Positions 277 through 60,178 of a DNA stretch of 64,000 nucleotides are shown piece after piece (the stretch's first letter is position 1; every line of letters begins with the position of its first letter). The stretch spans positions 9,959-73,958 of the forward strand of contig JACRJV010000019.1 in assembly GCA_016215325.1 (NCBI GenBank). Reading direction: 5' to 3'. The translations under genes and the position numbers were made by a program. The notes beneath the pieces were generated by a model, which saw nothing but the letters and a program-made list of their open reading frames with translations, was not told where the DNA came from and did no database searches. Source of the DNA: Candidatus Uhrbacteria bacterium. GTDB taxonomy: Bacteria; Patescibacteriota; Patescibacteriia; JACRJV01.

Positions 277-1524
277 TCAATGTATTCTGTCAACACCCAA
301 TACTAAATTCGGATTGACATCGAGTTTCTTCCACGGCGTGAATTGTTTTTTGAGTGCATGGAAGTATCCGGCAATCGCGATCATGACGGCGTTGTCGGTG
401 CAGAACGAAGGTATTGGTAATTGGTAATTAGTAATTGGTAATTCGCGAGCAACAGCCGCCGCGAGTTGCTCACGAAGTTGTTTGTTGGCGGCCACGCCAC
501 CGGCGAGAATGACTGTTTTAATCTTGTATTCTTTTGCCGCGCGTATTGTTTTTGCCACCAGTACATCAACGACAGCTTTTTGGAAACTGGCGCAGATATC
601 CGCAACAACAACAGGAGTTAGCTTGTAGCTTTTAGCTTGTAGCGTCGTCACCCTACCAGCTAATTTCCTAATTTCCAATTCTTTTACCTTGTAGAGCACC
701 GCCGTCTTAATCCCGGAAAAACTAAAATCATAATCATTGCTCTTGATCATCGGGGCGCTGAAAGGGAACACGGTCGGGTCGCCACTTTCTGCAAGACGCG
801 AGACCACCGGCCCTCCCGGATACTCTAACCCCAAAATCTTTGCCACTTTATCAAACGCTTCTCCCACCGCATCATCGCGCGTGGCTCCGATGATTTTATA
901 ACCCAACGGTTTTTTCATGAGCACAAGCTCTGTGTGACCGCCCGAGACGACGAGGGCCAGGGCGGGATAGGGTATGGGGGTTAGGGTATGGGGGTTAGGG
1001 TCGGTTTTCACGCCTAAACCCTGGACCCTGAACCCTATACCCTTTCGCTGCAGCCAGGCTGCAGCGATGTGTCCTTCCATGTGGTTGACCGCCACCAACG
1101 GAATCTTCCATGCCCACGCGAGGGTCCGCGCTGTTTCGACGCCGACCATCAACGAGGTGATCAGCCCTGGGCCATAGGTGACTGCAATGGCATCGATCGG
1201 GGGTTTTGTATTTAGTATTTTGTATTTAGTATTTGTTTCGGATTTCGGATTTCGAATTTCGGATTTTCGCCCTGCTGAGACGAGCGCCTTCTCCACTACC
1301 GGAATAATCTTCTCTACATGCTCCCGCGCTGCCACCTCCGGCACCACCCCACCGGTCTTCCGGTGTGTCGCAATCTGCGAATGCACGACATTGGAAAGAA
1401 TTTTCACGTCAATATTCCCCGACCAAAGGCTCCGTCGAGACGGGGCCTGCGTGGAGGGGCTCGAAAATTCGAGTACCGCCGCAGCCGTCTCATCGCAACT
1501 GGTTTCAATCCCAAGAATTCTCAT
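277..1524 (-). CDS. tsaD: tRNA N6-adenosine threonylcarbamoyltransferase TsaD (Kae1/Gcp), with four in-frame repeat insertions
   Basis: MRILGIETSCDETAAAV..., GGVVPEVAAREH, HMEGH, VVSGGH, AFDKVAKILGLEYPGGP and FCTDNAVMIA motifs. The track ORF starts earlier (1593); the conserved start MRIL is at 1524. The protein is about 75 aa longer than typical TsaD because of four low-complexity insertions. Confidence 0.9.
   Translation of the reverse strand: MRILGIETSCDETAAAVLEFSSPSTQAPSRRSLWSGNIDVKILSNVVHSQIATHRKTGGVVPEVAAREHVEKIIPVVEKALVSAGRKSEIRNPKSETNTKYKILNTKPPIDAIAVTYGPGLITSLMVGVETARTLAWAWKIPLVAVNHMEGHIAAAWLQRKGIGFRVQGLGVKTDPNPHTLTPIPYPALALVVSGGHTELVLMKKPLGYKIIGATRDDAVGEAFDKVAKILGLEYPGGPVVSRLAESGDPTVFPFSAPMIKSNDYDFSFSGIKTAVLYKVKELEIRKLAGRVTTLQAKSYKLTPVVVADICASFQKAVVDVLVAKTIRAAKEYKIKTVILAGGVAANKQLREQLAAAVARELPITNYQLPIPSFCTDNAVMIAIAGYFHALKKQFTPWKKLDVNPNLVLGVDRIH
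410..447. repeat. Tandem repeat GGTAATT(A/G)GTAATTGG inside tsaD (encodes ...LPITNYQLPIP...)
   Basis: The string ggtattggtaattggtaattagtaattggtaattcg is visible; it is an in-frame insertion relative to the conserved TsaD C-terminal FCTDN region. Confidence 0.6.
618..690. repeat. Tandem repeat AGCTTGTAGC / TAATTTCC inside tsaD (encodes ...LQAKSYKLTPVV...)
   Basis: gttagcttgtagcttttagcttgtagcg followed by taatttcctaatttccaatt. The coding frame is maintained. Confidence 0.55.
964..1043. repeat. Palindromic repeat (GGGTATGGGGGTTAGGGT x2 ... CTAAACCCTGGACCCTGAACCCTATACCC) inside tsaD
   Basis: Two GT-rich direct copies are followed by their approximate reverse complement. It translates in frame as GIGFRVQGLGVKTDPNPHTLTPIPYP, inserted between the HMEGH and VVSGGH motifs. 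Confidence 0.65.
1203..1268. repeat. Tandem repeat GTATTTAGTATTT / TTCGGATTTCGG inside tsaD
   Basis: gttttgtatttagtattttgtatttagtatttgtttcggatttcggatttcgaatttcggatttt. It translates in frame as ...SEIRNPKSETNTKYKILNTKPP... between conserved TsaD segments. Confidence 0.65.
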
Positions 1525-8594: not shown

Positions 8595-10634
8595 ATGCCG
8601 TTTACTCTCGTTCCACCCTATCCCCCTTCTGGTGATCAACCCCGTGCGATCCAACAGCTCACAACTGGGGTCCGCTCTGGCGCCCATGATCAAGTATTGT
8701 TGGGCGTAACCGGATCCGGCAAAACCTTCACGATCGCCAATGTGATTCAATCCGTTCAAAAGCCGACATTGGTCATCGCTCACAACAAAACGTTGGCCGC
8801 ACAACTCACGCAAGAGTTCCGTACGTTCTTCCCCAACAATGCGGTGGAATACTTTGTCTCGTATTATGACTATTACCAACCAGAGGCCTACCTCCCATCC
8901 ACGGATACCTACATAGAAAAAGAGACGCAAATCAATGAGGAGATTGATCGCCTCCGCCATGCGGCCACCACCGCCATAATGACCCGCACCGACGTGATTG
9001 TCGTGGCCACGGTCTCCTGTATCTACAGTCTCGGCTCCCCAAATGAATACAAAAAAATGCTGATTGGGCTCGTGGTCGGCCAGCCGACTGAACGCCAAGC
9101 ATTGTTAGAACAATTGATTACGCTGCATTACACCCGCAACGATATTCTCAAACGCGGCTGCTTCCGGGCCAAAGGGGAATTATTCGAACTCATGCTGCCA
9201 GACAAAGAACAGATCATCCGCGTTGACTTGAGTGGCGGCGTGGTGCGCTCGATCGAGGTGTTTGATGCCGTGAGCCGCGCACAGCGCGAAAGCGTCCAAC
9301 AGCTGCTCGTGTTCCCGGCCAAGCATTTTGTGGTCGCCGAAGGAGTCAAGGAGGCGGCACTCCAGGCCATCGAACAAGAACTCAACCAACGCCTGGCTAC
9401 TCTCGACAAAGAGGGTAAGTTGTTGGAAGCCGAACGCCTCAAACGCCGCACGCGCTATGATCTGGCTATGATCCGAGAGATCGGTTATTGTAGTGGAATT
9501 GAAAATTACTCGCGCTATTTGTCTGCTCGGCCGCCTGGCAGTCCTCCGTACACACTCGTGGATTATTTCCCCAAAGATTTTTTGATGGTGATCGATGAGT
9601 CCCACGTGACGGTCCCTCAAATCGGCGGCATGTATGCCGGGGATCGCAGCCGCAAACAAACATTGGTCGAGCACGGGTTCCGCCTGCCCTCGGCGCTGGA
9701 CAACCGACCGCTCCAATTTAGCGAATTCGAAGAGCGCATGCCGCAGACAATTTACACCAGTGCCACACCGGGGAAGTATGAGCTTGGCAAGACGAGTCCC
9801 GCCGCAGCAGGATCCCGCACGCTGCGGGATAAGTCAAGCTCCGCCGATTCTTCATCTCTTCATCTCTTCATCTCTTCATCTCCCCTCATCATCGAGCAAA
9901 TCGTCCGCCCCACTGGCCTTGTAGACCCCGAAATTGTTCTCAAGCCCGCAGACAACCAAATCCCGGATCTTGAGAAAGAAATAGGGAAAGAAATAGAGAA
10001 TAAATGCCGGGTACTGGTGACCACGCTCACGAAAAAAATGGCAGAGGACTTGAGTGAGTATCTCCATGATCGCGGATACAAAACAAAGTATCTGCACAGC
10101 GATGTGGATACGATGGACCGAATCCGGGTGTTGGAAGACCTGCGCCGCGGCACCATCGACATCTTGATTGGTGTCAACCTGTTGCGGGAAGGGCTCGATC
10201 TCCCGGAGGTTTCGCTGGTGGCCATCTTGGATGCCGACAAAGAAGGGTTCTTGCGCAGCGACACGTCACTCATCCAAACCATGGGCCGTGCCGCCCGCAA
10301 CATCCGCGGCCGGGTGATCCTCTACGCCAATACGGTGACCGGCTCCATGAAGCGCGCCATTACCGAGACCAGCCGCCGCCGCAAAAAACAAGTCGAGTAT
10401 AACCTCGAGCATGGCATCACTCCCAAGTCCATCGAAAAGGCCATCCAATCCATTGTGGATTACGAACTCAAGCCGGAACTGCCGAGTGAATTTGTGGAGA
10501 TCGAAAAGTTCGAGGATGTCCCGGGGCTGATCAAAATAAAAATGAAAGAAGCCGCGCAGAGATTGGAGTTCGAACGGGCGGCTTTGATCAGAGATGAAGT
10601 AGTCCAATTAAAAAAACTCATCAGCACCCGATGA
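8595..10634 (+). CDS. uvrB: excinuclease ABC subunit B (UvrB) carrying a 33-aa in-frame repeat insertion
   Basis: Walker A GVTGSGKTFT, VIDESHVT, beta-hairpin region, helicase motif VI and the C-terminal UvrB-C domain (EAAQRLEFERAALIRDE). Confidence 0.95.
   Translation: MPFTLVPPYPPSGDQPRAIQQLTTGVRSGAHDQVLLGVTGSGKTFTIANVIQSVQKPTLVIAHNKTLAAQLTQEFRTFFPNNAVEYFVSYYDYYQPEAYLPSTDTYIEKETQINEEIDRLRHAATTAIMTRTDVIVVATVSCIYSLGSPNEYKKMLIGLVVGQPTERQALLEQLITLHYTRNDILKRGCFRAKGELFELMLPDKEQIIRVDLSGGVVRSIEVFDAVSRAQRESVQQLLVFPAKHFVVAEGVKEAALQAIEQELNQRLATLDKEGKLLEAERLKRRTRYDLAMIREIGYCSGIENYSRYLSARPPGSPPYTLVDYFPKDFLMVIDESHVTVPQIGGMYAGDRSRKQTLVEHGFRLPSALDNRPLQFSEFEERMPQTIYTSATPGKYELGKTSPAAAGSRTLRDKSSSADSSSLHLFISSSPLIIEQIVRPTGLVDPEIVLKPADNQIPDLEKEIGKEIENKCRVLVTTLTKKMAEDLSEYLHDRGYKTKYLHSDVDTMDRIRVLEDLRRGTIDILIGVNLLREGLDLPEVSLVAILDADKEGFLRSDTSLIQTMGRAARNIRGRVILYANTVTGSMKRAITETSRRRKKQVEYNLEHGITPKSIEKAIQSIVDYELKPELPSEFVEIEKFEDVPGLIKIKMKEAAQRLEFERAALIRDEVVQLKKLISTR
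9795..9893. repeat. Repeat element inserted in frame in uvrB (GTCCCGCCGCAGCAGGATCCCGCACGCTGCGGGA hairpin plus (TTCATCTC)x4)
   Basis: Translates as SPAAAGSRTLRDKSSSADSSSLHLFISSSPLII between the conserved TSATPGKYELGKT and EQIVRPTGLVDP. The same GTCCCGCCGCAGCGGGATCCCGC word recurs at 18575-18610. Confidence 0.6.
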
Positions 10635-13620: not shown

Positions 13621-13744
13621 AAAACTCGAAATCCGAATATCGAAATCCGAAAAAAATCTAAAATGTTTAAAATTTTTGATATTTGAATTTTACTATTGTC
13701 TCGAATTTCAAATTTCGTGCTTCGGATTTTTAATGCAGTCGACA
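13617..13744. repeat. Intercistronic palindromic repeat (CGAAATCCGAA ... TTCGGATTT family)
   Basis: cgaaatccgaatatcgaaatccgaa ... cgaatttcaaatttcgtgcttcggattttt. It is the reverse complement of the TTCGGATTTCGG word found inside tsaD. Confidence 0.6.
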
Positions 13745-14320: not shown

Positions 14321-14400
14321 AAGTCAATAATGATTCGCGGTATTCGGATAGTAATTCGCGGTATTCGCATTATGTTATTGGTTTTGTGCCTTATGTCGTA
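14321..14400. repeat. Intercistronic repeat (ATTCGCGGTATTCG x2 family)
   Basis: gattcgcggtattcggatagtaattcgcggtattcgcatta; related words occur at 34520-34550 and 58483-58500. Confidence 0.5.
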
Positions 14401-15460: not shown

Positions 15461-15477
15461 ACCACCGAGTAAATTAA

Positions 15478-15535
15478 GCAAGATAAGCGAGATAAGTAAA
15501 TTAAGCGAGACACGCAAGATAAGCTATTTTTACAA
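15478..15535. repeat. Intercistronic repeat (GTAAATTAAGC / AAGATAAGCGAGATAAG family)
   Basis: taaattaagcaagataagcgagataagtaaattaagcgagacacgcaagataagc; the same words flank the 4HB gene at 62400-62882. Confidence 0.55.
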
Positions 15536-16607
15536 TTGCATCATTCAACGGATGCGCGTACTGCCCATTGTTCACATATACTTTTCCAATTTTTTCTAAA
15601 AGGACATAGCGTGTCTGACCCGCGCGTACCTTCTTGTCATTCTTGGTGGCATTGATAATTTGCGTTGAAGAATATCGGCGCAGGACGGCAAATGGCAAGT
15701 TCCATGGCGCGAGTACCTCTTGAATTTTATCAAACTCTTTCTCTGGCAGCACGCCCAGTGTCTGCGCAATCTTCGCTTCGACAAGAACCCCAACCCCGAC
15801 AGCCAAACCGTGGTGGATGCGGTACCCGCTTACCTGCTCCAGAGCATGGCCAATGGTATGCCCGAAATTGAGCACAGCCCGCTGCCCTTGTTCGGTTTCA
15901 TCCCGCGCGATCACCCCAGCTTTGATCGTGACCGCGCGACGAATAAAATCAATCGCGTCCTGAAGTCGATGGGTTTTACGAAATCGTCCGACAATCTCCA
16001 AGGATGCCGGATCAGAAGTGATAAACATCTTAACCGCCTCCATCATTCCGGAGGTTATCTGCGGCTGCGACAGCGTCTGCAGATATTGCACATCAATAAT
16101 CACACGACTCGGCTGCCAAAATGCGCCGATTAAATTCTTTCCTTCTGGCGTATCAATCCCCGTTTTGCCGCCAATCGAACTGTCCACCATCGCCAGCAGC
16201 GTTGTGGGGACTTGAATATAGGGGATGCCCCGCAGGTAGGTGGCCGCCACAAATCCAGCGACATCACCGACCACTCCGCCGCCCAACGCCACAATCACCG
16301 TATCCCGTCCGCAGCGCTGGCCAAGCATCGCGCGCTCCAGCGCGGTTTTCGTTGTTTGATTTTTTGCGCCTTCGCCATGCGGCATGGAAAGTATGATGGT
16401 TTTGGAAACAAAACGCCGGATGCGTCGTGCCAATGAGCTGGCATACGTCCGTCGCAGATGCGTATCGGTAATAATCACGCACGCCACGGGATTGATAGCG
16501 CGGATCGCTCGATCCATCTCGGATACCAGAGATCGCCCGACGACAATATCGTACGAACGTGGTTGGAGTACCGGCAGATCCACATGAATTGTAGAGAGGA
16601 GAGGCAT
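15501..16607 (-). CDS. aroB: 3-dehydroquinate synthase
   Basis: ALGGGVVGDVAGFVAATYLRGIPYIQVPTTLLAMVDSSIGGKTGID and NFGHTIGHALE. Confidence 0.9.
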   Translation of the reverse strand: MPLLSTIHVDLPVLQPRSYDIVVGRSLVSEMDRAIRAINPVACVIITDTHLRRTYASSLARRIRRFVSKTIILSMPHGEGAKNQTTKTALERAMLGQRCGRDTVIVALGGGVVGDVAGFVAATYLRGIPYIQVPTTLLAMVDSSIGGKTGIDTPEGKNLIGAFWQPSRVIIDVQYLQTLSQPQITSGMMEAVKMFITSDPASLEIVGRFRKTHRLQDAIDFIRRAVTIKAGVIARDETEQGQRAVLNFGHTIGHALEQVSGYRIHHGLAVGVGVLVEAKIAQTLGVLPEKEFDKIQEVLAPWNLPFAVLRRYSSTQIINATKNDKKVRAGQTRYVLLEKIGKVYVNNGQYAHPLNDAIVKIAYLACLA

Positions 16608-16613
16608 AGGGTG

Positions 16614-17648
16614 CTAGGATCGCCCAAGTTCTATCAACGTCTCTTCTGTTTGCTCCCACGAAAGGCAGGGGTCGGTGATGGATAGCCCATTACGATTGAT
16701 GGTTTCCGATGTGCACCGCGCCACACTCTGTGAGCCGCCGGTCAAGAAACTCTCGATCATAAATCCTTTAACGTATTTTTTGAACTCCTTCTCGCGGTTC
16801 ATCAATTCCATTGTTTCACACACGACCGTCATTTGCCGGGCGTATTCTTTCTTCCCATTGATCTTGCAATTGTCGTGGCTGGCGTCGATGAGGATCGCTG
16901 GGTTTTTCACGTTCGCTTTCTCCAAGATTCCAACCGCCTTCGCGATATTTTCCTGGTCATAATTTGGTGCAGAGTTTCCGCCGCGTAATACCAAGTGGGC
17001 AAAGTCGTTCCCGCGCGTTTCTACCTGATACCCGTTAAACACAGTCGTGTGGCCATGTTGAGCAGCAATAATCCCATTCACCCCTATCTCAAGGTTCCCG
17101 CTGGTGGGATTCTTCATTCCTACCGCGCACTCTACTGCCGACGCAAAGATGCGGTGCTCTTGATCCTCGGTCGAACGAGCGCCAATGGCCACCCAACTTA
17201 ATAGCTCAATAAATCCCCGAGCATTATGCGTGAACACCGCCTCGTCGGCAATCGGCAACCCCATCTCAACCGCCCGCACCATGAGACTGCGGGAATACGC
17301 AATCCCCTTTTCAATGTCCGGAGGCAAAAAAGGATCCGGCTGATTCACTGGGCCTGTCCATCCCTTGGTTGTCCGCGGTTTTTGGATATACAACCGCAGC
17401 ACTACTTTCACACGATCTTGGATTTGATCCGAGACAGATTTGAGTCGCTTAGCATACTCAATCACGCTTTCGTAAGGCCATGCGGAACAAGGGCCGACCA
17501 CCACGAGCATGCGATGATCTGAACCCGAAAGGATCGCTTTTACTTCCTCGCGGTCACGGGCAATGCGAGCATGCCCCTCCAATGATAATGGGAAGGCGTT
17601 GATAATTTCTTCTGCGCTCGGTAATTTTTTTATCGTTGTAAGATTCAT
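16614..17648 (-). CDS. aroG: 3-deoxy-7-phosphoheptulonate (DAHP) synthase, class I-alpha
   Basis: MLVVVGPCSAW..., KPRTTKGWTGPVNQPDP, ...CKINGKKEY... Confidence 0.9.
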   Translation of the reverse strand: MNLTTIKKLPSAEEIINAFPLSLEGHARIARDREEVKAILSGSDHRMLVVVGPCSAWPYESVIEYAKRLKSVSDQIQDRVKVVLRLYIQKPRTTKGWTGPVNQPDPFLPPDIEKGIAYSRSLMVRAVEMGLPIADEAVFTHNARGFIELLSWVAIGARSTEDQEHRIFASAVECAVGMKNPTSGNLEIGVNGIIAAQHGHTTVFNGYQVETRGNDFAHLVLRGGNSAPNYDQENIAKAVGILEKANVKNPAILIDASHDNCKINGKKEYARQMTVVCETMELMNREKEFKKYVKGFMIESFLTGGSQSVARCTSETINRNGLSITDPCLSWEQTEETLIELGRS

Positions 17649-17700
17649 ACAAATAATGCGAATAACCATTCGTCATTCTGGCTTGGCCAGAATCCGATCT
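17649..17700. repeat. Intercistronic hairpin repeat (CGTCATTCTG...CAGAATCCG family)
   Basis: aatgcgaataaccattcgtcattctggcttggccagaatccgatc; related words at 18551-18565 and 61141-61170. Confidence 0.45.
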
Positions 17701-18539
17701 GATCCTGCCTGCCCCGCCTTGGCGGTGGGTCTCGGCCAAGATGACAACACCTCGCGCCACTCTTGTGGATCAACGCCGATACCAGACCACAATCGGATCT
17801 GTTCAACCCCTTGCGCGATAAACATTTCAATTCCGGATATTGTTTGCGCGCCTGCTAACCGCGCTTGCTTGAGCAATGCCGTCTCTAACGGGTTATACAC
17901 GCAGTCCATAACCTTCTGATACTGCTCAAAATGATATCCGGGCAGCGGGGAGGCGCTGCTATCAGGATGCATGCCAATGGGCGTGGTGTTTACAATAATG
18001 TCCAAGGGCTGTTTGTAAACATCTTCGATAGTTTTAAGTACAGTACCGCCAAATTGTTGTGCGAGGATTTGTGCCTTTTGCGGTGTGCGGTTCCAATAGT
18101 ACTGCGCGGCTTTCTTTTTGGAAAGAGTTACGGCAACCGCTCGTGCTGCCCCTCCGGCACCGAGGATCAGTGTATTCTTCCCTGCGATGTCGATCCCCCG
18201 CAGGGCATGCTCAACGCCAATGACGTCGGTATTATATCCCCGCAACATCGAATTCTCCGAAATCACCGTATTGACCGCACCGACCTCGCGCGCTGAATCA
18301 TCCAGTCCATCAAGGTATGGAATAATCGATTCCTTATGTGGGATGGTTACGGCCGTAAGGCCGATGCCAAGCGTGCGAATTGCCTGGACCAGCGCCGAAA
18401 CATCAGGGTGTGGGAATGCCAGCATGATTGCGTCGATTCCAGCCGAAGCGTAGCTTGTGGTATGCAGCAATGGACTCATGCTATGGGCAAGGGGGTAGCC
18501 AATAACCGCATTGAGTTTTGTTTTGGTAGTAATATTCAT
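17673..18539 (-). CDS. aroE: shikimate dehydrogenase
   Basis: VIGYPLAHSMSPLLH, GYNTDVIG, GAGGAARAV motifs. Confidence 0.85.
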   Translation of the reverse strand: MNITTKTKLNAVIGYPLAHSMSPLLHTTSYASAGIDAIMLAFPHPDVSALVQAIRTLGIGLTAVTIPHKESIIPYLDGLDDSAREVGAVNTVISENSMLRGYNTDVIGVEHALRGIDIAGKNTLILGAGGAARAVAVTLSKKKAAQYYWNRTPQKAQILAQQFGGTVLKTIEDVYKQPLDIIVNTTPIGMHPDSSASPLPGYHFEQYQKVMDCVYNPLETALLKQARLAGAQTISGIEMFIAQGVEQIRLWSGIGVDPQEWREVLSSWPRPTAKAGQAGSDRILAKPE

Positions 18540-18660
18540 AATTTGAGCATCGTCATTCTGAGGCTAAAACCGAAGTCCCGCCGCAGCGGGATCCCGCCCG
18601 AGGCGGGAAATCCTCAACTACAAGGTCCTGCGCAAAACTCAGGATGACACAACGGACTCG
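18540..18660. repeat. Intercistronic composite palindromic repeat (CGTCATTCTGAGG...CTCAGGATGACA with inner GTCCCGCCGCAGCGGGATCCCGCCCGAGGCGGGAA hairpins)
   Basis: Read directly from sequence; it shares the GTCCCGCCGCAGCGGGATCCCGC word with the uvrB insertion. Confidence 0.6.
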
Positions 18661-19100
18661 TTCACTCTCTTCAAATGTTCAGCAAGGATTTTTACCGCCT
18701 CTTGATACCCTTGTTCTTTCTTCCCGCTGACTTGTGCGATACATGCCGGTGCAATCACAGAATGCGCCCGCCACGATTCTCGGGCATGAATATCCGAAAG
18801 GTGCACTTCCAGGCAAGGGAGCTTCGTGTCCAGCAGCGCGTCATACAAAGCATAACTGTAATGCCCAAGTGCCCCGGGGTTCATGATGATTCCCGCTGCC
18901 GTTGAGGCATTTTCCTGGAGCCAATCGATCAAAGCACCTTCATGATTCGATTGAAAGGCGCGGATGATATACCCTAGAGCCTGCGCCGTGGCGCGCGTCT
19001 GTTGCTGGAGGGCATCCAGCGTCAACGTCCCATACAATTGTGGATCGCGTGTACCAAGGCGATTCAGGTTAGGCCCATGGATAAGGAGGATGGTGTTCAT
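18639..19100 (-). CDS. aroQ: 3-dehydroquinate dehydratase, type II
   Basis: MNTILLIHGPNLNRLGTRDPQLYG...QSNHEGALIDW... Confidence 0.9.
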   Translation of the reverse strand: MNTILLIHGPNLNRLGTRDPQLYGTLTLDALQQQTRATAQALGYIIRAFQSNHEGALIDWLQENASTAAGIIMNPGALGHYSYALYDALLDTKLPCLEVHLSDIHARESWRAHSVIAPACIAQVSGKKEQGYQEAVKILAEHLKRVNESVVSS

Positions 19101-21184: not shown

Positions 21185-24085
21185 ATGGAAAAAATCATCG
21201 TGCGTGGTGCCAAAGAACATAACCTCAAAAATGTGAACCTCGAAATCCCTCGGGATAAGCTTATCGTATTTACCGGGATCTCGGGATCGGGTAAATCCAC
21301 CCTCGCGTTTGATACCATCTTTGCCGAAGGCCAGCGCCGCTATTTAGAATCTCTTTCTTCGTATGCCCGCCAATTTTTAGGGCAGATGAAAAAACCGGAC
21401 GTCGAATCCATCGATGGACTCTCGCCCGCAATTTCGATCGACCAAAAAACCGCATCGCATAATCCGCGATCCACTGTCGGCACCGTCACCGAAATCTACG
21501 ACTATCTGCGATTGCTGTATTCCAAGATCGGCCTCCCGCATTGCCTGGATTGCGGTCGCGCGATCCAGCAACTCACCATTGATCAGATCGTGGAGTCAAT
21601 AATCGATGAGTTCAACGGGCAAGAGGTGATGATCTTTTCCCCGGTCGTGCGCGGGCGCAAAGGCGAATATCATACTCTGCTCAACGACTTCTATCTCAAA
21701 GGGTATGCCAAAGCGCGGGTTAATGGCGCCCTGGTGGCTCTGGGGGAGCGTATTGTGTTGGATCGCTATAAAACCCACACCATCGACATATTGATGGATG
21801 CGGTCATCGCGACCGTTGAGAACATGGGTCGATTGTTTGAGGCCGTCGAATTTGCCACCGGCAATGCCGAGGGAAATGTACTTGTCGCGAGTAAATCAAG
21901 CGGGTCAAGTAAATTAAGCTTGTCGCGAACGAAGAAAAAAAACTCTCTAGAACCTAGCGCCTATAACCTAGAACCTCAAACCGAACGCCTCTATAACCTC
22001 AAACTCGCGTGCCCCTATTGCAATTTGAGTTTTCCCGAAATTGCTCCACGCCTTTTCTCTTTCAACAGCCCCTACGGCGCTTGCCCGACGTGCACGGGGT
22101 TAGGAATAAAAAAAGAAATTGATCCAGAACTGATCATCCCTGACAAAACGAAAACGATCGAAGAAGGCGGAATCCTCCCAGATTCCTACAGCCAATTTAA
22201 TTATTATGGATCGATCTTGCGCTCACTGGCGGATCACTACCACCTCCCCAGCAACCGCCGCATCAAGGACCTCCCCAAAGAAACACTCAATGCCATCCTT
22301 TATGGCGCAGAAGATCCCATTCCTCTGCGTGTCAAATACTACATGAATGGACGGCCGCGCGTCTTCAAGACTCGCTTCCCAGGACTCATCCCATTGTTAG
22401 AGGAACGCTATCAAAAAACAGAATCTGACACGGTGCGATCGGATATCGAGGCGTATATGTCCAGCTCCGATTGTCCCACGTGCCACGGAGCGCGGCTCAA
22501 ACCCGAAGCATTAGCTGTAAAAGTCAGTACCCAGTCGATTGTTGATATCGCGCAACAATCCATCGCCAGCGCATATCAGTTTTTCCAAACGCTCCCCGCG
22601 ATACTCAATGCACGGCAAACACTCATCGCCGATCGCATCCTCAAAGAAATCACCAATCGGCTCAAATTCTTAGTGAATGTCGGCTTAGAATATCTCACCC
22701 TGAGTCGCACCGCCAATACCTTGGCCGGCGGCGAAGCACAACGCATTCGCCTCGCCAGCCAAGTGGGCAGCGCCCTCACCGGCGTGCTCTATGTACTGGA
22801 TGAGCCGTCGATTGGCCTCCATAGCCGAGATAACGCCAAACTGTTAGAGACCTTAAAACACCTGCGCGATATCGGCAACACTCTGATCGTGATCGAACAT
22901 GACGAAGAAACTATGCGAGAAGCCGACTGGCTCGTGGATATCGGGCCCCGCGCGGGCAAGCACGGCGGCACGATCATCGCCAGCGGCCCTCCCGAGCAGG
23001 TGATCAAGCACCCAACATCGTTGACCGCTCAATATTTGCGCGGAGAGCGCTCAATACCAGTGCCAGAGCAACGTCGAAGGCCACGCAAAAACTCTTTAAT
23101 CATTCGCGGGGCTCGCGAACATAACCTTAAAAACATTGCGGTCGAAATCCCGCTGGGGGTGCTTGTCTGTATTACCGGTGTATCAGGCTCGGGAAAATCC
23201 ACGCTCATAGAGGATATCCTCTATCCGGCGCTGGCGAAGAAACTCCATCATGCCAACACCCGGGCGGGACTCCATACAACCATCGAAGGAATCGAACACA
23301 TTGATAAGGTCATTGTCATCGATCAATCGCCCATCGGCCGCACACCGCGCTCGAACCCCGCCACCTATACGGGGATGTTTACGCCCATCCGAGAACTATT
23401 TGCCGCCACCAAGGGGGGGCGCATCCGAGGCTATGGCCCGGGGCGGTTCAGTTTTAATGTCCGCGGCGGACGGTGCGAAGCCTGCCAAGGGGACGGCGTC
23501 CAGAAAATCGAGATGCAATTTTTGCCTGATGTGTATATCCCCTGCGATGTCTGCGCCGGCAAACGCTATACCTCTGAAACACTGGCGATTACGTACAATG
23601 ATAAAAACATTGCAGACGTCTTAGCGATGACTGTTGAAGAAGGATATCTATTTTTTAAAGATATTCCCCAAATTGCCGACAAGCTAAACATCCTTAATGA
23701 TGTCGGCTTAGGGTATATTGAGTTGGGCCAGTCCGCCACCACGCTCTCCGGCGGCGAAGCGCAACGGATTAAGCTCGCCACCGAGCTGGCGCGCCGCGCC
23801 ACCGGCAGAACATTCTACATCCTCGATGAGCCGACCACGGGCTTGCACTTTGAAGATATCCATAAGCTCCTGTCGGTGCTCGAGCGCCTGGTGGATGCCG
23901 GCAATACCGTCTTAGTGATCGAGCATCAACTCGACGTGGTCAAAACCGCGGATTGGATTATTGATCTTGGCCCCGAAGGAGGAGACAAGGGTGGCAGTAT
24001 TGTAGCCCAAGGCACGCCCGAGCAGGTCGCCAAGATGAAACAAAGTTACACGGGACAGTTTTTAAAACCTCTTCTCAAGCAATAA
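21185..24085 (+). CDS. uvrA: excinuclease ABC subunit A (UvrA) carrying an in-frame repeat insertion
   Basis: Two ABC modules ([15 protein letters not shown]; [13 protein letters not shown]), LSGGEAQRI signature twice, and zinc-finger CxxC pairs. Confidence 0.95.
21890..21985. repeat. Repeat element inserted in frame in uvrA (GTAAATCAAGCGGGTCAAGTAAATTAAGC plus TAGAACCTAG/TATAACCT words)
   Basis: Translates [31 protein letters not shown] between the conserved ...NAEGNVLVA and [13 protein letters not shown]. It shares the GTAAATTAAGC word with 15478-15535 and the 4HB flanks. Confidence 0.55.
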
Positions 24086-24871
24086 TCATTGACGCTGTCC
24101 GCTGCCGGGCTGTTCGAGGGTATTGAGGAGCCGTTGAAACTCGGCCGATGATTTAAATTCAATCGGCCGCGGATGCGGATACCCGATCGGAGTGTCCAAT
24201 ACGATCCGCGATCCCGCCTGCTGTGAACGGTCTTTGGAGAGCTTGATGACCCGCGTTCCCAAATAAATTGCTTCGGGCAAATCGTGTGTGACAAACACGA
24301 TGGTCATTTTTTCGCGTTGATACACATCGAGCAAAAATTGTTGCATCTGTTGTCGGCGCGCAGAGTCCAACGCGCTGAATGGCTCATCCAATAGTAAGAC
24401 CTTGGGGTGTGTAATCACCGCTTGTGCAATCGCGACCCTCTGCTCCATGCCACCCGAAAGTTGGTATGGGTATTTTACTGCCGCATCTTCTAACCCCATA
24501 TCACGAAGGTACTGCCAAACATGGGCCGACTCTTCGTTGTGGTTCGTAAGCGTACGCAGTCGTTGGGCGCACAATCCAAACACAATATTTTCAAATACGG
24601 TGAGATGCGGGAACAATGAATATTGCTGATACACAATGGTGCAACGCCGATCCGGCATGGTTTTCAACTCCCCCGCAACCATAATACTCCCCTCCCATGG
24701 TTGCTCGGCACCGACCAGGAGTCCTAAGAGTGTTGATTTGCCGCAGCCCGATGGGCCGACAACGGTCACAAACTCTCCCTCATGGACAGAAAGGTTCACC
24801 CCGTGGAGTACGGGTGTCTGTTCGTACCCGTGACGGACACCAGTGATTTCAACGACAGGATTATGAGACAT
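24086..24871 (-). CDS. ABC transporter ATP-binding protein (nitrate/sulfonate/bicarbonate NitT/TauT family)
   Basis: GPSGCGKSTLLGLL, LSGGMEQRVAIAQA, LLLDEPFSALD. Confidence 0.85.
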   Translation of the reverse strand: MSHNPVVEITGVRHGYEQTPVLHGVNLSVHEGEFVTVVGPSGCGKSTLLGLLVGAEQPWEGSIMVAGELKTMPDRRCTIVYQQYSLFPHLTVFENIVFGLCAQRLRTLTNHNEESAHVWQYLRDMGLEDAAVKYPYQLSGGMEQRVAIAQAVITHPKVLLLDEPFSALDSARRQQMQQFLLDVYQREKMTIVFVTHDLPEAIYLGTRVIKLSKDRSQQAGSRIVLDTPIGYPHPRPIEFKSSAEFQRLLNTLEQPGSGQRQ

Positions 24872-24875
24872 ACGG

Positions 24876-25700
24876 TTATCGGGTATACCACGGATATCGA
24901 TGAGCGATCCACCATGCAATCAACGCATCAAATGTAAACGACAATGCCGCGATCCACAAGACATACGGGATGATCACGTCCATCGCCAGGTATCGACGAA
25001 CCAAAAAAATTCGATACCCCAGGCCGTTACTGGAGGCAATGGCTTCCGCAGCGATGAGAAATATCCAGGCGTTTAATAACTGCAATCGCAATGATGTGAG
25101 CGCTGGGGGCATGATCTGCGGCAGAACCACCCGTCGAATTATCGTGGGTGTTCGAGCTCCGAGTGCGAGAGCGCTGATGAATTGTTCTTTGGGCATGCGC
25201 TTCACGCTAAAGTACACGTCCAAAATAATCGTGGGAGTAATACCGATGATAATCAATGCGATCTTCGTGGTTTCTCCAAGACCCGAAATAATAAACACAA
25301 TCGGCAGGATCGCAAGAGGCGGCACCTTGCCAAAATACAAAATGAAACGAAACAGGATTGCTTCCACGATGGGAAAGAGCGCCAGACTCATCCCAATAAT
25401 CACACTCATGCCAAAACTCGCGACTACTCCAACACCAAGGCGCTGAAGACTCGCGACGGAATCTTCAATGAGCAACATTCGTTCATTCTCGCCGGGTGAC
25501 AATACATAGCGGACTCCGCTTACGAGCTGCGCGATATTCGGAACGATTTTATCATCGGGATTCCGTACATGGCGGATGCGCGACACAATCCCGTATCCGA
25601 CCAACACCACCATGAACGCGAGGATGCTCAATGCCAAGCGGCGTCGGTATGCAATCGTGGTATACACCGAAAGACCGAAGAATGATCGGAGACCGTTCAT
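24876..25700 (-). CDS. ABC transporter permease (NitT/TauT family, BPD_transp_1 fold)
   Basis: Six predicted TM segments and an EAA-like loop (ALGARTPTIIRRVVLPQ). Confidence 0.8.
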   Translation of the reverse strand: MNGLRSFFGLSVYTTIAYRRRLALSILAFMVVLVGYGIVSRIRHVRNPDDKIVPNIAQLVSGVRYVLSPGENERMLLIEDSVASLQRLGVGVVASFGMSVIIGMSLALFPIVEAILFRFILYFGKVPPLAILPIVFIISGLGETTKIALIIIGITPTIILDVYFSVKRMPKEQFISALALGARTPTIIRRVVLPQIMPPALTSLRLQLLNAWIFLIAAEAIASSNGLGYRIFLVRRYLAMDVIIPYVLWIAALSFTFDALIAWWIAHRYPWYTR

Positions 25701-27013: not shown

Positions 27014-27769
27014 ATGGACAACTCACTCCTTCAGCAACTCGGGCTTCACGAAAAATCGGCGCGTGTGTTCCAAGCAGCTCTGGAATTGGGTGAGGCCACG
27101 ATGACAGAAATCGCCAAAAAAGCGGGACTCAAACGCCCGACCACCTATCTTGTCGTCGATGACCTCGAGTCGATGGGTCTCATCTCGCGAATACTCAAAG
27201 GCAAACGGTTCTACTACTCCCCGGTGCATCCCCGTCGCCTTCAGGATATTGCACGGTTGCGCGAACGGCGAATTGCGGAATCTCTCCCCGAGCTCGTGGC
27301 CCTCTATAACGCATCGACGAATAAACCAAAAATTCAAGCGTTTGAGGGGCTGGAGGGCATGCGCCTCCTCTATAACGAACTCTACCAATCCCTGAACAAC
27401 AAAGAAGAGGCGCTCTTTTTTACCCGCATTGGAGCGTTACGCGAAGTGCTTCCTCAAGCTCTCACCGAATATAAACAGATGCTTGGACAATTAAAGAACC
27501 CCAAGATCCGTGAATTAAACTATGGTGACGATGCGGGGAAACAGTGGTATCACGAAATGCGTAGATTTTATAATAAAAACTTTCAAATGCGCCTCCTCCC
27601 AACAACGCACGAATTTGGTAATTGTGACAACCTTATCTTTGGGAATAAATTAGTTATTTTCTCACTCAAGAACGATGTCTTTGTGATTGTGATTGAAAGC
27701 CCTGAGATCGCCAAAACATTCCGAGCGCTCTTTGACTGGGCGTGGAAAATGGGAAAGGAAGCATCGTAG
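27014..27769 (+). CDS. TrmB-family HTH transcriptional regulator
   Basis: LLQQLGLHEKSARVFQAALELGEATMTEIAKKAGLKRPTTYLVVDDLESMGLI. Confidence 0.7.
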   Translation: MDNSLLQQLGLHEKSARVFQAALELGEATMTEIAKKAGLKRPTTYLVVDDLESMGLISRILKGKRFYYSPVHPRRLQDIARLRERRIAESLPELVALYNASTNKPKIQAFEGLEGMRLLYNELYQSLNNKEEALFFTRIGALREVLPQALTEYKQMLGQLKNPKIRELNYGDDAGKQWYHEMRRFYNKNFQMRLLPTTHEFGNCDNLIFGNKLVIFSLKNDVFVIVIESPEIAKTFRALFDWAWKMGKEAS

Positions 27770-32509: not shown

Positions 32510-32962
32510 TTATTGTGAAACATTAGACGATGATGTACCGTGCCGTGACCGATGCTTGCGCGCTACCCGCAGCCGCGCCAGAGAACGCTCCAATGCCGCG
32601 GCGGCTTCGGCGCCCTTGACATCATCTTTAAATCCTTCTTCGCGCATGATCTTTTGTGCGCGTTCCATAGCTTCTTTCGCCCGTTCTTCCCGAATCGCTT
32701 CCGCGGGTTCAGCCGCGTGGGCCAAGATCAAAACCTCATCGCCTTCTTTCACTTCCACAACCCCGCCGGTCACCAAGAAAGAGTTGAGCAATGTTCCACC
32801 CATGCCGGATTTAAGCTCTACTTCACCGGGGACGAGTTCAGCGATGAGTGCGCGATGCCCGGGGAGAATGCCAAGCTGGCCCATAGTGGTGGGCAACAGC
32901 ACCTCACCAGCCTCGGCCTTGAGGAGGATTTTTTCTTGTGAAATTAGTTGGATGTGCAGCAT
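32510..32962 (-). CDS. atpC: F-type ATP synthase epsilon subunit
   Basis: MLHIQLISQEKILLKAEAGEVLLPTTMGQLGILPGHRALIAEL. Start at MLHIQ; the track ORF reads through the upstream repeat. Confidence 0.85.
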   Translation of the reverse strand: MLHIQLISQEKILLKAEAGEVLLPTTMGQLGILPGHRALIAELVPGEVELKSGMGGTLLNSFLVTGGVVEVKEGDEVLILAHAAEPAEAIREERAKEAMERAQKIMREEGFKDDVKGAEAAAALERSLARLRVARKHRSRHGTSSSNVSQ

Positions 32963-33083
32963 AGGAAATTGGTTACTGGAAATTGGAGAATAGTAATGGA
33001 ACATGGAAATTAGTGTTTGAATACGTTTCCAATCTCCATACACCAATATCTATTACCATTTTCTATTTTCTAGCAACCAGTTT
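32963..33083. repeat. Intercistronic palindromic repeat (GGAAATTGG / TAATGG words and complement)
   Basis: ggaaattggttactggaaattggagaatagtaatggaacatggaaattag ... tttccaatctccatacaccaatatctattaccattttc. Confidence 0.5.
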
Positions 33084-35454
<2,371 letters not shown>

Positions 35455-42498: not shown

Positions 42499-43245
42499 AT
42501 GAAAATCGAAGATGTCCTCAAACAATATGGCCTGGATGCCGATGAAACTGCAGTTTATTTGGCAGCCCTTCAACTCGGCGGGAGCCCGGTGCAAGAAATT
42601 TCCAACCAATCGGGTGTCAAACGCACCAGCGTCTATTTAGTGGCAAAGTCTTTAATGAACAAGGGTATTTTGGGCGAATACAAAACCCGCCGGGGCTTGC
42701 ATTTGGTCGCACAACCGCCGGAATTACTGGTTTCTCAACTCGAGGAAAAGGCCAAAGCCATGGCCAGCATCATCCCCCGCCTTAAAGCCATTGCTAAAAA
42801 AGAGCCGCATAAGCCGCAAGTACAATATTTTGAAGGAAAGCAAGGTTATTTTTCGGTGTGCGAAGATACTTTGCAAAAACATGCTAGCGAACTCCTGTGG
42901 CTGGGCGACCCAGCTGAAATTTATGCTGTTATCGGCGAGAAATACGACAACGACTATTACATCCCTACCCGCGTTAAACGGAAAATCTGCCTCCGCGGAC
43001 TGTTAATAAAAAATGCTTGGTCAGAAAAACTAGTGGCCAACAATCGACCAGACCTTTTGCGCGATATCAAATTCCTCCCCGACGATTTCCCGTTTTGTTC
43101 CACTCAATTCATCTATCATAATAAAGTCGCTTTTATTAGTTCGACGAATGAATTGATCAGCGTTCTGGTCCACAGCCAAGATTTGGCTGCCATGGAACGA
43201 GCTAAGTTCGAACTTCTTTGGAGTAAATATGCTCTGTTGAGATAA
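42499..43245 (+). CDS. TrmB-family HTH transcriptional regulator
   Basis: IEDVLKQYGLDADETAVYLAALQLGGSPVQEISNQSGVKRTSVYLVAKSLMNKGIL. Confidence 0.7.
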   Translation: MKIEDVLKQYGLDADETAVYLAALQLGGSPVQEISNQSGVKRTSVYLVAKSLMNKGILGEYKTRRGLHLVAQPPELLVSQLEEKAKAMASIIPRLKAIAKKEPHKPQVQYFEGKQGYFSVCEDTLQKHASELLWLGDPAEIYAVIGEKYDNDYYIPTRVKRKICLRGLLIKNAWSEKLVANNRPDLLRDIKFLPDDFPFCSTQFIYHNKVAFISSTNELISVLVHSQDLAAMERAKFELLWSKYALLR

Positions 43246-43648: not shown

Positions 43649-46758
<3,110 letters not shown>

Positions 46759-46793
46759 ATTAAAAGGCATGGAATACATCTATTCTCTTCAGT

Positions 46794-53846: not shown

Positions 53847-55436
53847 TCAACTACTAACGAAATTTACTGACAACTTTTTATAATACCGTTGCCGTTGCTT
53901 AAACTGCCTCTCGAGAAATGGAATTTGCGCATCACGGTAATCGATAATCGTCTTTTGGCTGCCAATATCTCTGAGTCGCCCGATATACTGAACGAGCTTA
54001 CCCTCGAATGCAAAAGGAAACGCCAATATCAAACAAGAAATTCCACGAATATCGATGCCCTCGCCAAAGAATTGTCCAGTGGACAAGATGACTCGATAAT
54101 GTCCCGACTCAATTTGTTTCAGCTTTGATGTTCTTGACCGAGCAGAGTCGTCCCCGGAAATAACGATCGTCTCGCACTTCCCCTTAAGATACAGGGCTAA
54201 AATTTCCAAATGTTCCTTTCGTTCGCTTAACACCAACAGTCTTTTGCCGTCGCTCACATTGCTCAAGATGTCTTCAATAATCATCTGATTCCTCGCTGTA
54301 TCGAAACAGACAACTTTTGCCAAGAGTTGAAAATTATCAGTGGTAAATTTAAATGGTAGAGCTAAAGTTGTTGTGTGGATGAGTACTTCCGGTGGCTGAC
54401 GTGAAAGTTCAGAGACTGGGGCGATATCAGAAGCTTCCATACGAGCGACGATGTCGCCGATATACACATAGATCAATTTTTCATCGTTGTGCTTTCGCTT
54501 TGGAGTCGCCGTCAGACCGTAGAGATATTTTGGATTTAACTCTGCAATGACTTCACGGAACGTTGCAGCCGGAATGTGGTGACATTCATCCACAATAATC
54601 GTTCCGAATGTATCCCGTAGCTCTGTGAGGTTGCCTTTGCGAGCCAAGCTCTGCAACAGACCGACGGTTATTTGCTTGCCCAATTTTTTCTTCGTTCCAG
54701 AATATTGGCCAATATGCGCTTTCGCAATCCCTAAAAATGTCTGGATTCTTTCAACCCACTGATCGAGCAATTGTTTGCGGTGGACAAGAATAAGCGCCGG
54801 TAGCTGCCTTCGGGCTATCAGTTCAAGGCCGATAACCGTTTTGCCGCTCCCGGATGGAGCAACAATGAGATTACCAAAACCGGCTCCGGTCAACGTGTCT
54901 TGATTGGGGAACAAGCGATCAAAACTGACTTCCTTTTCAAACTCAGAGACATGAAATGCTCTGCGGATCAGCTCAAGCGCGATTTGTCGGCTCTTGTAGC
55001 ATGGATAGGCTTCAGAAAAGAACATCCAGACATGACCGCCGTTGCCAGAGCGTGAACGCTCCAGATATGCAGAAAGTCCGACTTCCGCGCAAGCTACGCT
55101 AAAGGCTTTACTATCAGCGAGCCAATTCTCGCCATCAAAATCTGCCACAATAAAATACGATGTGTTGTCTGAGAGTATCGGATACATTCCGATAACGTGG
55201 CCTCCGAGGGGATGTTTTTTAACAACATCATTCGTTAGCGCTATCAGCTTCTTATATTCGAAATCTTTCATGGAGCCTCCGCGCCGCTTATGCGCCATGA
55301 ATTCATCCCAAATAAAATCATAGGCCGGACTGTATCCAGACCGGCCTTCTTTTTCCCATCGGCGAGCATAGACATCCGTACGCCCATGAAATAGCGACAT
55401 GTATAACTCAAGTTGTTGCTCGCTGATAACAACCAT
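53847..55436 (-). CDS. fusion protein: N-terminal archaeo-eukaryotic primase-polymerase (AEP/PrimPol)-like domain plus C-terminal superfamily-2 DEAD/DEAH-box helicase
   Basis: N-terminus: YFIVADFDGENW (DxD), RSRSGNGGHVWMFF (sG-G-H), SFDRLFPNQDTLTG (motif III-like). C-terminus: APSGSGKT (Walker A), IIVDECHH (DExH), LTATP (III), QYIGRLRD (VI). Confidence 0.65.
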   Translation of the reverse strand: MVVISEQQLELYMSLFHGRTDVYARRWEKEGRSGYSPAYDFIWDEFMAHKRRGGSMKDFEYKKLIALTNDVVKKHPLGGHVIGMYPILSDNTSYFIVADFDGENWLADSKAFSVACAEVGLSAYLERSRSGNGGHVWMFFSEAYPCYKSRQIALELIRRAFHVSEFEKEVSFDRLFPNQDTLTGAGFGNLIVAPSGSGKTVIGLELIARRQLPALILVHRKQLLDQWVERIQTFLGIAKAHIGQYSGTKKKLGKQITVGLLQSLARKGNLTELRDTFGTIIVDECHHIPAATFREVIAELNPKYLYGLTATPKRKHNDEKLIYVYIGDIVARMEASDIAPVSELSRQPPEVLIHTTTLALPFKFTTDNFQLLAKVVCFDTARNQMIIEDILSNVSDGKRLLVLSERKEHLEILALYLKGKCETIVISGDDSARSRTSKLKQIESGHYRVILSTGQFFGEGIDIRGISCLILAFPFAFEGKLVQYIGRLRDIGSQKTIIDYRDAQIPFLERQFKQRQRYYKKLSVNFVSS

Positions 55437-55455
55437 AGATTACAGAAAACGCCAG

Positions 55456-56427: not shown

Positions 56428-56434
56428 ATTATCA

Positions 56435-56448
56435 AACTTTATAAAGTT
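56435..56448. promoter_or_regulatory. Perfect palindrome AACTTTATAAAGTT at the 5' end of the fic gene (candidate autoregulatory operator)
   Basis: Visible; a second half-site, TATAAAGTTTGA, lies 20 bp upstream. Confidence 0.35.
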
Positions 56449-56695
56449 AGTCAATATATCAAGATTCTATAAAGTTTGAAATCTTGTCAAGTATACTTTA
56501 CAAGTAGTATAAAATGTAGGAAAACAAGAGCAATATCAGCTTGAAATGCATGATTCTCTTGTTACCAATCTATACTTGAAGATGTGAACGTATTGAAAAA
56601 CAGGGGGGAAACGCAATGGACGGCCCTAGTGGCCGCCCATGAAATCGCATCGCGATCTTCCCAAAATTCTGTTCAAATCGACGTTTGTTTGATTC

Positions 56696-57278: not shown

Positions 57279-57285
57279 AAGAGGT

Positions 57286-60160: not shown

Positions 60161-60178
60161 AGTCAGCGCGTAAGTCTG

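Follow-up and report, generated by a model that had tools for sequence, protein, structure and literature searches.

That small repeats can lie in frame inside essential genes is textbook knowledge for Rickettsia, whose Rickettsia palindromic elements (RPE) were reportedly described by Ogata et al. in 2000. RPE are small dispersed repeats that occur both between genes and in frame within housekeeping genes, and they are read as tolerated selfish DNA (PMC3184786, PMC10969869). A different kind of small element is the intervening sequence (IVS) in the 23S rRNA of Coxiella burnetii, which has 428-444 nt, an open reading frame (ORF) of the S23p type, and a 28-bp terminal stem that is cut by RNase III (PMC4990558). 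Coxiella also has QMITEs, which are MITEs (transposable elements of the miniature inverted-repeat type) lying in frame in genes (PMC5896051), and there are also the short tandemly repeated repetitive (STRR) heptamers of cyanobacteria and the long bacterial simple-sequence repeats of 5-11 nt (PMC4692102). Here we analyse the uvrA gene within a 64-kb stretch (the window, to which coordinates refer unless another locus is named) of the genome of an uncultured groundwater Candidatus Uhrbacteria, a member of the Candidate Phyla Radiation (CPR)/Patescibacteria. The gene carries an in-frame insert of 31 codons that is built from short repeat words. We think it probable that this is tolerated selfish or neutral repeat DNA in a permissive loop of UvrA, ancestral in its clade and with its left third derived from the arm of a gene-carrying cassette, and that it is not a functional module.

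In the CPR/Patescibacteria literature we found no relevant paper on in-frame, tandem or palindromic repeats, nor on the repeat words described below. In-frame selfish repeats are already known; what appears to be new here is that repeats of this type are built from the tandem words of IVS-type cassette stems, and that they occur in CPR bacteria.

A repeat-built insert in an intact UvrA

The host gene encodes an intact UvrA of class I. Its 966-amino acid (aa) product is a 100% match to the NCBI protein P0001, named excinuclease ABC subunit UvrA of Candidatus Uhrbacteria, for which the UvrA_inter and UvrA_DNA-bind Pfam domains are recorded. A phmmer search matches it with E=0 to the solved structures 2r6f, 9gxk, 3zqj and 3pih, with coverage of aa 1-965 except for aa 235-265; the similarity is thus full-length, and both ABC ATPase modules are present. 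UvrA proteins have a UvrB-binding domain and an insertion domain on a stem with zinc modules 1 and 2, together with a C-terminal zinc finger (PMC3167621, PMC7835731), and the whole of this layout is found in the window protein. The cysteine pairs lie at 120/123 with 276/279, 300/303 with 430/433, and 764/767 with 787/790. Across an orthologue set of the 120 best UvrA homologues, all of CPR type, the Walker and signature residues are invariant, as are C120 and C276, and the CPYC sequence pairs with CPYC of 2r6f. The AlphaFold2 (AF2) model has a mean predicted local distance difference test (pLDDT) score of 82.6 and is confident outside the insert.

The insert occupies aa 236-266. In a HMMER alignment with Geobacillus UvrA (2r6f), aa 1-234 and 266-965 align with the structure, while aa 235-265 face just five residues. 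The spacing between the invariant G230 and the near-invariant N271 is 40 residues in the window protein, 13-14 in 46 of the 120 orthologues, and 15-65 in the other 74. The comparison with orthologues that the first-pass annotation had proposed therefore supports it: because 46 of 120 CPR orthologues have a 13-14-residue hairpin here, and 2r6f has five residues against 31 in the window, the segment is an insertion, with a net gain of about 26-27 aa over an insert-free UvrA. The structural mapping that it had also proposed gives a consistent picture. In the AF2 model the β-strands 231-236 and 267-271 are separated by a stretch (aa 239-264) with pLDDT <50, and the insert thus replaces the turn of the last β-hairpin of the UvrB-binding domain, shortly before the CPYC (276-279) that closes zinc module 1. 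The insert is predicted to be disordered, and the intact reading frame suggests that it is translated. That annotation had set the insert in frame between NAEGNVLVA and the zinc finger, and this is right; the 13-residue zinc-finger stretch follows directly, and only the right-hand end requires adjustment, from 21985 to 21982.

How general is an insertion at this position? About 60% of the 120 sampled CPR UvrA proteins hold a low-complexity insert at the same site, and the turn is a recurrent acceptor site. A metagenome scan using a UvrB-binding-domain peptide returned, among the matches listed, only relatives of ≤50% identity, and the pattern TVTEIYDY is universally conserved. Downstream of the window uvrA lies an ABC transporter (24086-25700).

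At the DNA level the insert falls into three parts. The left part is an array of 9-nt words that are read as Ser-X-X. It is separated by TTGTCGCGAACGAAGAAAAAAAACTCT from an array of 7-nt words, for which Tandem Repeats Finder (TRF) gives a period of 7 and 4.3 copies; this is the second set of repeats that had earlier been remarked upon after the 9-mers. The 7-nt array resembles the adjoining native codons CGCCTCTATAACCTCAAAC (21986-22004), and when it is aligned locally with the 35 native nt that follow, the score is 13 (8.2 ± 1.6 for shuffled sequence, with 18 of 2000 shuffles reaching 13). No second copy of the heptamers was found in the window or in some 120 fetched loci, where there were only chance 11-mers. 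To judge from the sequence, the right third is most likely a slipped-strand duplication of the adjoining native codons, and the left third alone belongs to the cassette-arm family described below. Phase-variable contingency repeats are near-perfect tandem repeats in an ORF, with a copy number that switches the frame; the present arrays are degenerate (65-75% matches by TRF), and uvrA is a housekeeping gene. Perfect copies of CTTGTCGCGA bracket the 9-mer array 38 nt apart, a spacing that is not a multiple of three. The window insert has no terminal inverted repeats, and the idea that it forms a hairpin was rejected, as it folds no better than shuffled sequences (z = +0.53).

The word family and the four-helix-bundle cassettes

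The words of the left array recur at three other loci of the window. Allowing at most one mismatch, GTAAATTAAGC has seven matches (15469, 15496, 21891, 21909, 62439, and 62837 and 62864 on the minus strand) against 0.8 expected, a number reached in none of 100 shuffles. The degenerate pattern AGYRNRNYNAGYRNRNYNAGY has 11 matches against 0 expected, all within four loci beginning at 15468, 21890, 62411 and 62837 (minus strand). Aligned with each of the other three loci the insert gives local scores of 15-17, compared with 8 ± 1.5 after shuffling (0-3 of 1000 shuffles reach the observed value), and the four loci are the four best-scoring 60-nt windows for the insert in the whole 64 kb. The core that the first-pass annotation saw in common with the aroC/aroB spacer and with a pair of inverted repeats is thus borne out by both pattern and alignment, although the coordinates change: the spacer array runs over 15468-15524 and not 15478-15535, and the supposed 40-bp repeats at 62400-62882 are 39-nt arms at 62411-62449 and 62837-62875. 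At the aroB/aroC junction the array makes up the spacer that precedes the aroC ATG (15460) and also supplies the last seven codons and the stop of aroB. The repeat has thus reshaped the terminus of aroB, which now reads ...AYLACLA* (15501-15524, minus strand). No Rfam family covers the arrays; the sole Rfam matches in the window are to 23S rRNA, 5S rRNA and two tRNAs.

The two remaining loci are the arms of a cassette of ~465 nt (62411-62875) that encloses a four-helix-bundle gene of the PF05635 family. The arms are 39 nt long, 90% complementary and 387 nt apart. The encoded protein has a homologue, P0121, annotated as 'four helix bundle protein'. In all five scorable loci, inverted word arrays lie on both sides of the PF05635 gene, with inverted-repeat scores of 12-29 compared with a control mean of 7.6 and 95th percentile of 9. 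The closest homologues of the window protein, at 70-74% identity, lie at different loci (one adjoins KhpA, another is flanked by the genes for UDP-glucose dehydrogenase and PfkB, and a third separates atpD from atpC), each with 9-mer arrays of this family on either side. This scattered distribution is consistent with the cassettes being mobile.

The similarity between the insert and the flanks of four-helix-bundle genes, which had been suspected from the window alone, is statistically solid there and extends to the cassette arms of other genomes. The uvrA arrays of the window and of a related locus, L003, align in 9-nt register with the arms of PF05635 cassettes from the window and from four further genomes (L201-L204), and AG is invariant at the start of each unit. 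In all, the 9-mer family is found in five genomes besides that of the window, and as cassette arms in at least four of them. The window uvrA array is identical to the right arm of L201 at 24 of 25 positions. The last three nucleotides of the 9-mer are uniform within each genome and differ among genomes, being TCA in L201, CC in L202 and in the uvrA of L003, GAC in L204 and TA in the window arms. The words of the window uvrA end TCA, TCA and TTA, a better fit to the arms of L201 than to those of its own genome.

Some further features of the cassettes may be added. The window encodes four paralogues of a TrmB-family regulator (1529-2347, 27014-27769, 42499-43245 and 62853-63689), the last being the gene whose probable ATG at 62881 follows 5 nt after the cassette; TrmB genes also lie near the uvrA or four-helix-bundle loci of L001 and L003. 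The 23S rRNA of the window (43650-46759) was searched for a PF05635 ORF, a word array and a long stem, and none of these was found; its 3110 nt exceed the 2925 positions of the Rfam model by ~185 nt. Between atpD (33084-34517) and atpC there is a hairpin of ~120 nt (32950-33090, minus strand) formed of tandem words (GGAAATTGG, TAGAAAA and similar) and containing no ORF. It is more stable than shuffled sequence (z = -4.05, 0 of 200 shuffles) and occupies the exact intergenic site of an arm–four-helix-bundle–arm cassette in L001 and L204. The start of atpC is probably the ATG at ~32961, not that of the long TTG-start ORF as called. Most of the close homologues of the four-helix-bundle protein (P0121-P0240) are on contigs of 0.6-3 kb, and these short contigs suggest that the cassettes or their arms break metagenome assemblies.

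A 20-mer, AGCRAGATAAGCRAGAYAAG, has matches in more than 112 stretches of GTDB genomes (L006-L117 among them), where about 9 are expected by our own estimate. The matches listed, which do not include the source genome of the window, are concentrated in Buchananbacteria, other CPR and Acidobacteriaceae. Most are intergenic 9-mer-array hairpins where genes end, accompanied in some cases (Portnoybacteria, Undibacterium) by AGTAAATTA words; other copies lie in frame within genes (for example L028, L077 and L111), and some are plain QDK-coding sequence of low complexity. We rejected this 20-mer as a constant mark of the cassettes, since only 6 of the 163 matches listed lie within 150 nt of a PF05635 gene.

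The uvrA gene is not the only housekeeping gene affected. The earlier view that three such genes in 64 kb carry in-frame repeat inserts holds for uvrA, uvrB and tsaD on the evidence of structural alignments together with the arrays themselves. In uvrB, aa 398-428 face two residues of 9gy7_E, and the uvrB inserts of the window and of L005 correspond to the left flank of the L201 cassette over its full length (9-mers, CCGCnGCnGCGG, TCCCGCnCGnnGCGGG and ATAAATCAAG), including the CCCGC double hairpin. In tsaD, several segments that have no counterpart in 6n9a_D coincide with 7-8-nt arrays; one insert forms a hairpin with z = -4.0, and the segment 1224-1267 is an inverted copy of the intergenic sequence 13621-13664. 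The arrays in uvrA, tsaD and uvrB have units of 7 and 8 nt despite lying in coding sequence, which argues for an origin at the level of DNA and not by selection for peptide repeats. The 8-nt word TCTTCATC/TCTTCACC forms in-frame arrays in uvrB (9849-9882) and in atpG (34823-34861; gene 34561-35454, minus strand), and words of the type ATTCGCxGTATTCGCAT are found at 14327-14370, 34521-34543 and 58482-58504. A further tsaD segment, SPSTQAPSRRSLWSGNID (residues 26-43, or 23-40 of the query as aligned; 1463-1516, minus strand), may be what is left of an older insert that has decayed: its 18 residues are without counterpart in Thermotoga maritima TsaD, and it shows no obvious tandem repeat.

The history of the uvrA insert can be followed in the DNA of its three closest orthologues, L003, L001 and L005. 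At the same codon L003 (78% aa identity) has AGTAAATCC AGTGAAGCC AGCAAGTCC AGTAAATCC AGC followed by TCGCGGTCGAAAAAA. The 9-mer arrays and A-rich spacers of the window and L003 are homologous, and the insert therefore predates their split; the comparison of sequences places it in the common ancestor of this Uhrbacteria clade. The right part of the L003 insert is a nested palindromic element of 60 nt (GTCATTCCGG..CCGGAATC..GATCCTG..CAGGATGAC), a near copy of which lies directly after the uvrA stop codon. L001 and L005 (83%) have a version of the insert made of 7-nt words that folds into a hairpin (z = -2.0 for L001). Within 22.9 kb of L001, the only further occurrences of its insert word, TAAGTCGTAAGA, are on the two sides of its own PF05635 gene, which is located between atpD and atpC and is a paralogue of the window gene (46% identity). 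The same relation to local repeats is seen further afield. For the insert of L198, 54 10-mers are also present in the locus around it, where 8 would be expected. That of L200 (Moraniibacteriota) has 58 10-mer matches to the repeats of its own genome against 20, and its heptamers AATTTCC and TTCAAAA form a tandem array inside the uvrC of that genome. In that gene (13881-15152 of L200) the array is in frame, with AATTTCC repeated four times and with TTCAAAA; L200 also has a second UvrA paralogue of 935 aa (16293-19100), 3 kb downstream. Within the clade the amino acid identity of the insert between the window and its relatives is 21-42%, and that of the flanks 81-85%. Assemblies made independently (JGI, ENA and Logan) contain homologous inserts at the same codon. 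In L001 the gene directly upstream of the segment 12909-14343 is uvrA, and this segment holds a pair of genes, RVT_1 and bAvd, resembling a diversity-generating retroelement (DGR).

Table 1. Positions of the uvrA insert, its component repeats and related features in the 64-kb window
Feature	Position	Strand	Evidence or remark
uvrA coding sequence, 966 aa, intact class I UvrA	21185-24085	+	ORF, phmmer, AF2
In-frame uvrA insert, 31 codons, aa 236-266	21890-21982	+	HMMER, spacing count, AF2
First copy of 10-nt direct repeat CTTGTCGCGA	21881-21890	+	
9-nt word array AGTAAATCA AGCGGGTCA AGTAAATTA AGC, read Ser-X-X	21890-21919	+	cassette-arm word family
Second copy of 10-nt direct repeat CTTGTCGCGA	21919-21928	+	
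A-rich spacer coding LSRTKKKNS, homologous to TCGCGGTCGAAAAAA of the L003 orthologue	21920-21946	+	
7-nt array CTAGAAC CTAGCGC CTATAAC CTAGAAC CTCAAAC	21947-21981	+	TRF
Codons for C276-P-Y-C279, second Cys pair of zinc module 1 (first pair C120/C123)	22010-22021	+	
9-mer array at the aroB/aroC junction	15468-15524	+ (both genes on -)	word pattern, TRF, Pfam DHQ_synthase and Chorismate_synt
Left cassette arm AGCAAGATA AGCGAGATA AGCAAGACA AGTAAATTA AGC	62411-62449	+	inverted repeat and word pattern
Four-helix-bundle gene, 124 aa, PF05635 23S_rRNA_IVP / bAvd-like	62460-62834	+	Pfam E=2.1e-37
Right cassette arm, reverse complement of 9-mer array	62837-62875	-	ends 5 nt before probable TrmB start 62881
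uvrB in-frame insert, aa 398-428 and adjoining: CCCGC double hairpin, GATAAGTCAAGC, TCTTCATC x4	9786-9890	+	
Palindromic element between genes, GTCATTCTGAG...CTCAGGATGAC, with the CCCGC double hairpin of the uvrB insert	18553-18650		
tsaD region, four in-frame 7-8-nt array inserts: 413-443, 619-680, 964-1043 (hairpin), 1204-1266	413-1266	-	

Elsewhere in the window there is a cluster of conflict-type genes (53847-61122) comprising an AEP-TOTE primase-helicase, Fic, a PLD-like nuclease, HU, RmuC and AbiEii.

Origin of the insert

On the reading that we prefer, the left third of the insert would be a solo copy of the 9-nt array (AGY-RRR-NNN) that forms the terminal inverted repeat of the ~465-nt IVS-type cassettes of Uhrbacteria, which carry the PF05635 gene of S23p/Avd-like type. 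The right third would have grown by slipped-strand duplication of native codons, and the whole would since have been reshaped through turnover of the arrays, through other small palindromic elements nesting in it and perhaps through conversion from copies elsewhere. The same permissive turn would have been struck repeatedly across the CPR. The insert would persist because its length is a multiple of three, it contains no in-frame stop codon, and its predicted disordered K/S-rich loop does not disturb the fold. We infer that it is neutral.

A number of observations weigh against this reading. No transposase, RAYT or reverse transcriptase domain was found in any substantial ORF of the 64-kb window, and since no mobilising enzyme was found there we can only infer how the first insertion took place; we know of no transposase activity of the PF05635 protein. 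The window insert is not itself a hairpin, and can therefore be at most a solo arm. The direct repeat of CTTGTCGCGA looks like a fresh target-site duplication, a poor fit with an ancient insertion, and its 38-nt spacing together with its absence from L003 fits neither a simple old nor a simple new insertion. Between L001 and L005 the identity at third codon positions is 80% in the insert against 54% gene-wide, and it is in the insert array that the two genes share their longest exact match (37 nt); pure neutrality does not predict this. The low identity of the insert across the clade combined with the reversed pattern in L001 and L005 makes change look episodic, occurring by replacement and not gradually, and there may be constraint or homogenisation of the insert at the nucleotide level. 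Three of the four clade members have inserts of ~30 aa with a lysine-rich centre, and this could reflect function.

The last point leads to the idea that the loop is a functional, lineage-specific addition to UvrA under selection as protein, for example a flexible basic tether to DNA or UvrB, and that the likeness to repeats reflects only its origin. The insert lies in the UvrB-binding domain, it is kept in all four clade members (with 30-31 aa in three), its centres are rich in lysine (RTKKK, RSKK, KKKGGKRTK and RKKQSGKRTK), and many other CPR inserts at the site are likewise K-rich. We nevertheless regard such a function as improbable. The sequence of the insert is not conserved as protein in comparison with its flanks, it is predicted to be disordered, it is absent from 2r6f and from the 46 CPR orthologues with a short hairpin, its lysines follow from A-rich repeat DNA, and the conservation between L001 and L005 is at synonymous sites, i.e. 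at the level of nucleotides and not of protein. The first-pass annotation had allowed that a conserved lineage-specific loop would overturn its reading. The presence of an insert there is indeed conserved within the clade and frequent across the CPR, but the protein sequence is not conserved, and each genome builds the insert from its own dispersed repeats. That the whole insert arose by local replication slippage in uvrA, its likeness to the aroB/aroC and four-helix-bundle arrays being a coincidence of low complexity, is much less probable still. In its favour are the right-hand heptamers, with their likeness to the neighbouring native codons and the lack of any further copy in the data, and the many unrelated arrays of 7-9 nt in the genome. 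However, the left array matches other loci of the window far beyond chance and also matches foreign cassette arms, in register and at 24 of 25 positions, and the same relation is found in L001 with a different word, and in uvrB with a complex composite. An error of assembly or annotation, or a uvrA pseudogene, we consider negligible. The source is a metagenome-assembled genome in which repeats can misassemble, and many of the four-helix-bundle homologues are on contigs of 0.6-3 kb; yet the frame of 966 codons is intact, all the Walker, signature and zinc motifs are conserved, and the independent assemblies contain homologous inserts at the same codon.

The arrays might alternatively be kept alike by an active templated process, either gene conversion or Avd-assisted copying through RNA and cDNA, so that the uvrA insert would be a live target rewritten from a master. 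In two genomes the uvrA insert and that genome's own four-helix-bundle arms have a genome-specific word in common, the last three nucleotides of the 9-mer vary between genomes and not within them, and L001 and L005 have excess identity at synonymous sites of the insert. Moreover PF05635 is related to the DGR accessory protein bAvd, and L001 has a reverse transcriptase and bAvd directly 3′ of uvrA. Against this, there is no reverse transcriptase near uvrA in the window, the variation of the words is not adenine-specific as it would be in DGR copying, and the window words TCA/TCA/TTA fit the arms of L201 better than their own. The four-helix-bundle genes of the window and L001 are paralogous, and the co-variation in two genomes could therefore be an effect of sampling; ordinary slippage and compensation between arms can also homogenise arrays. 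We therefore give this process little credence, and rejected targeting of uvrA by a DGR given the lack of a reverse transcriptase in the window and the pattern of word variation; in L001 no relation of template and variable repeats to the insert was seen for the neighbouring reverse transcriptase and bAvd. A broader proposal, slightly less doubtful in our view but still unlikely, is that the four-helix-bundle cassettes are an active, hitherto uncharacterised family of mobile elements in the CPR. Their tandem-word stem arms would be copied to new places, essential genes included, and a templated process involving the four-helix-bundle protein would keep them alike within a genome. If so, the inserts in uvrA and uvrB would represent either footprints of this process or its live targets.

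The locus provides a concrete and checkable case of CPR proteins gaining disordered loops of low complexity, and it ties such loops in UvrA to the stem repeats of IVS-type cassettes and to their enigmatic S23p/four-helix-bundle gene. With copies of the cassette outside rRNA at different loci of related genomes, and fragments of arms in genes, mobility becomes directly testable. The repeats can settle in essential genes without breaking them, and such inserts inflate the length of proteins, cause assemblies to break and can lead alignment-based phylogenies astray when CPR marker genes are used.

Relation to known repeat elements

Of the elements with which we began, the cassette most resembles the Coxiella IVS. 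To go by its layout, it is of similar length, with a PF05635 ORF between terminal inverted repeats that could form a long stem, and its distribution is likewise scattered. It differs in location, since protein-coding genes and not 23S helices surround the cassettes (upstream of TrmB, between atpD and atpC, and next to KhpA). Moreover the arms are composed of tandem 9-mers, and fragments of them are found in frame inside genes.

The arrays share with STRR the tandem units of 7 nt, here also of 8-9 nt, at many loci, often as inverted pairs and with no established function. STRR however are intergenic sequences of heterocystous cyanobacteria, whereas the present arrays are degenerate, belong to a CPR genome and are often in frame inside essential genes. 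There is some MITE-like character in the nested 60-nt element of L003, with its terminal inverted repeats GTCATTCC...GGATGAC and other copies in the genome. The window insert is unlike a MITE in lacking terminal inverted repeats, and the substantial ORFs of the window yielded no cognate transposase; the sole gene-carrying relative is the PF05635 cassette.

In behaviour the closest analogue would be RPE. As in RPE, the copies are dispersed (four loci in 64 kb against 0 expected), and the uvrA copy is in frame in what is predicted to be a surface loop, leaving the host protein intact. RPE are palindromes of 100-150 bp in defined consensus families of an alphaproteobacterium, whereas here the elements are degenerate tandem words of 7-9 nt linked to PF05635 in the CPR. 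To our knowledge homology to the consensus families RPE-1 to RPE-8 is not to be expected across phyla. Being a solo arm of ~30 nt, the uvrA copy of the window is no palindrome, and on this ground it does not belong among the RPE; the likeness would thus lie in how these repeats behave and not in their sequence.

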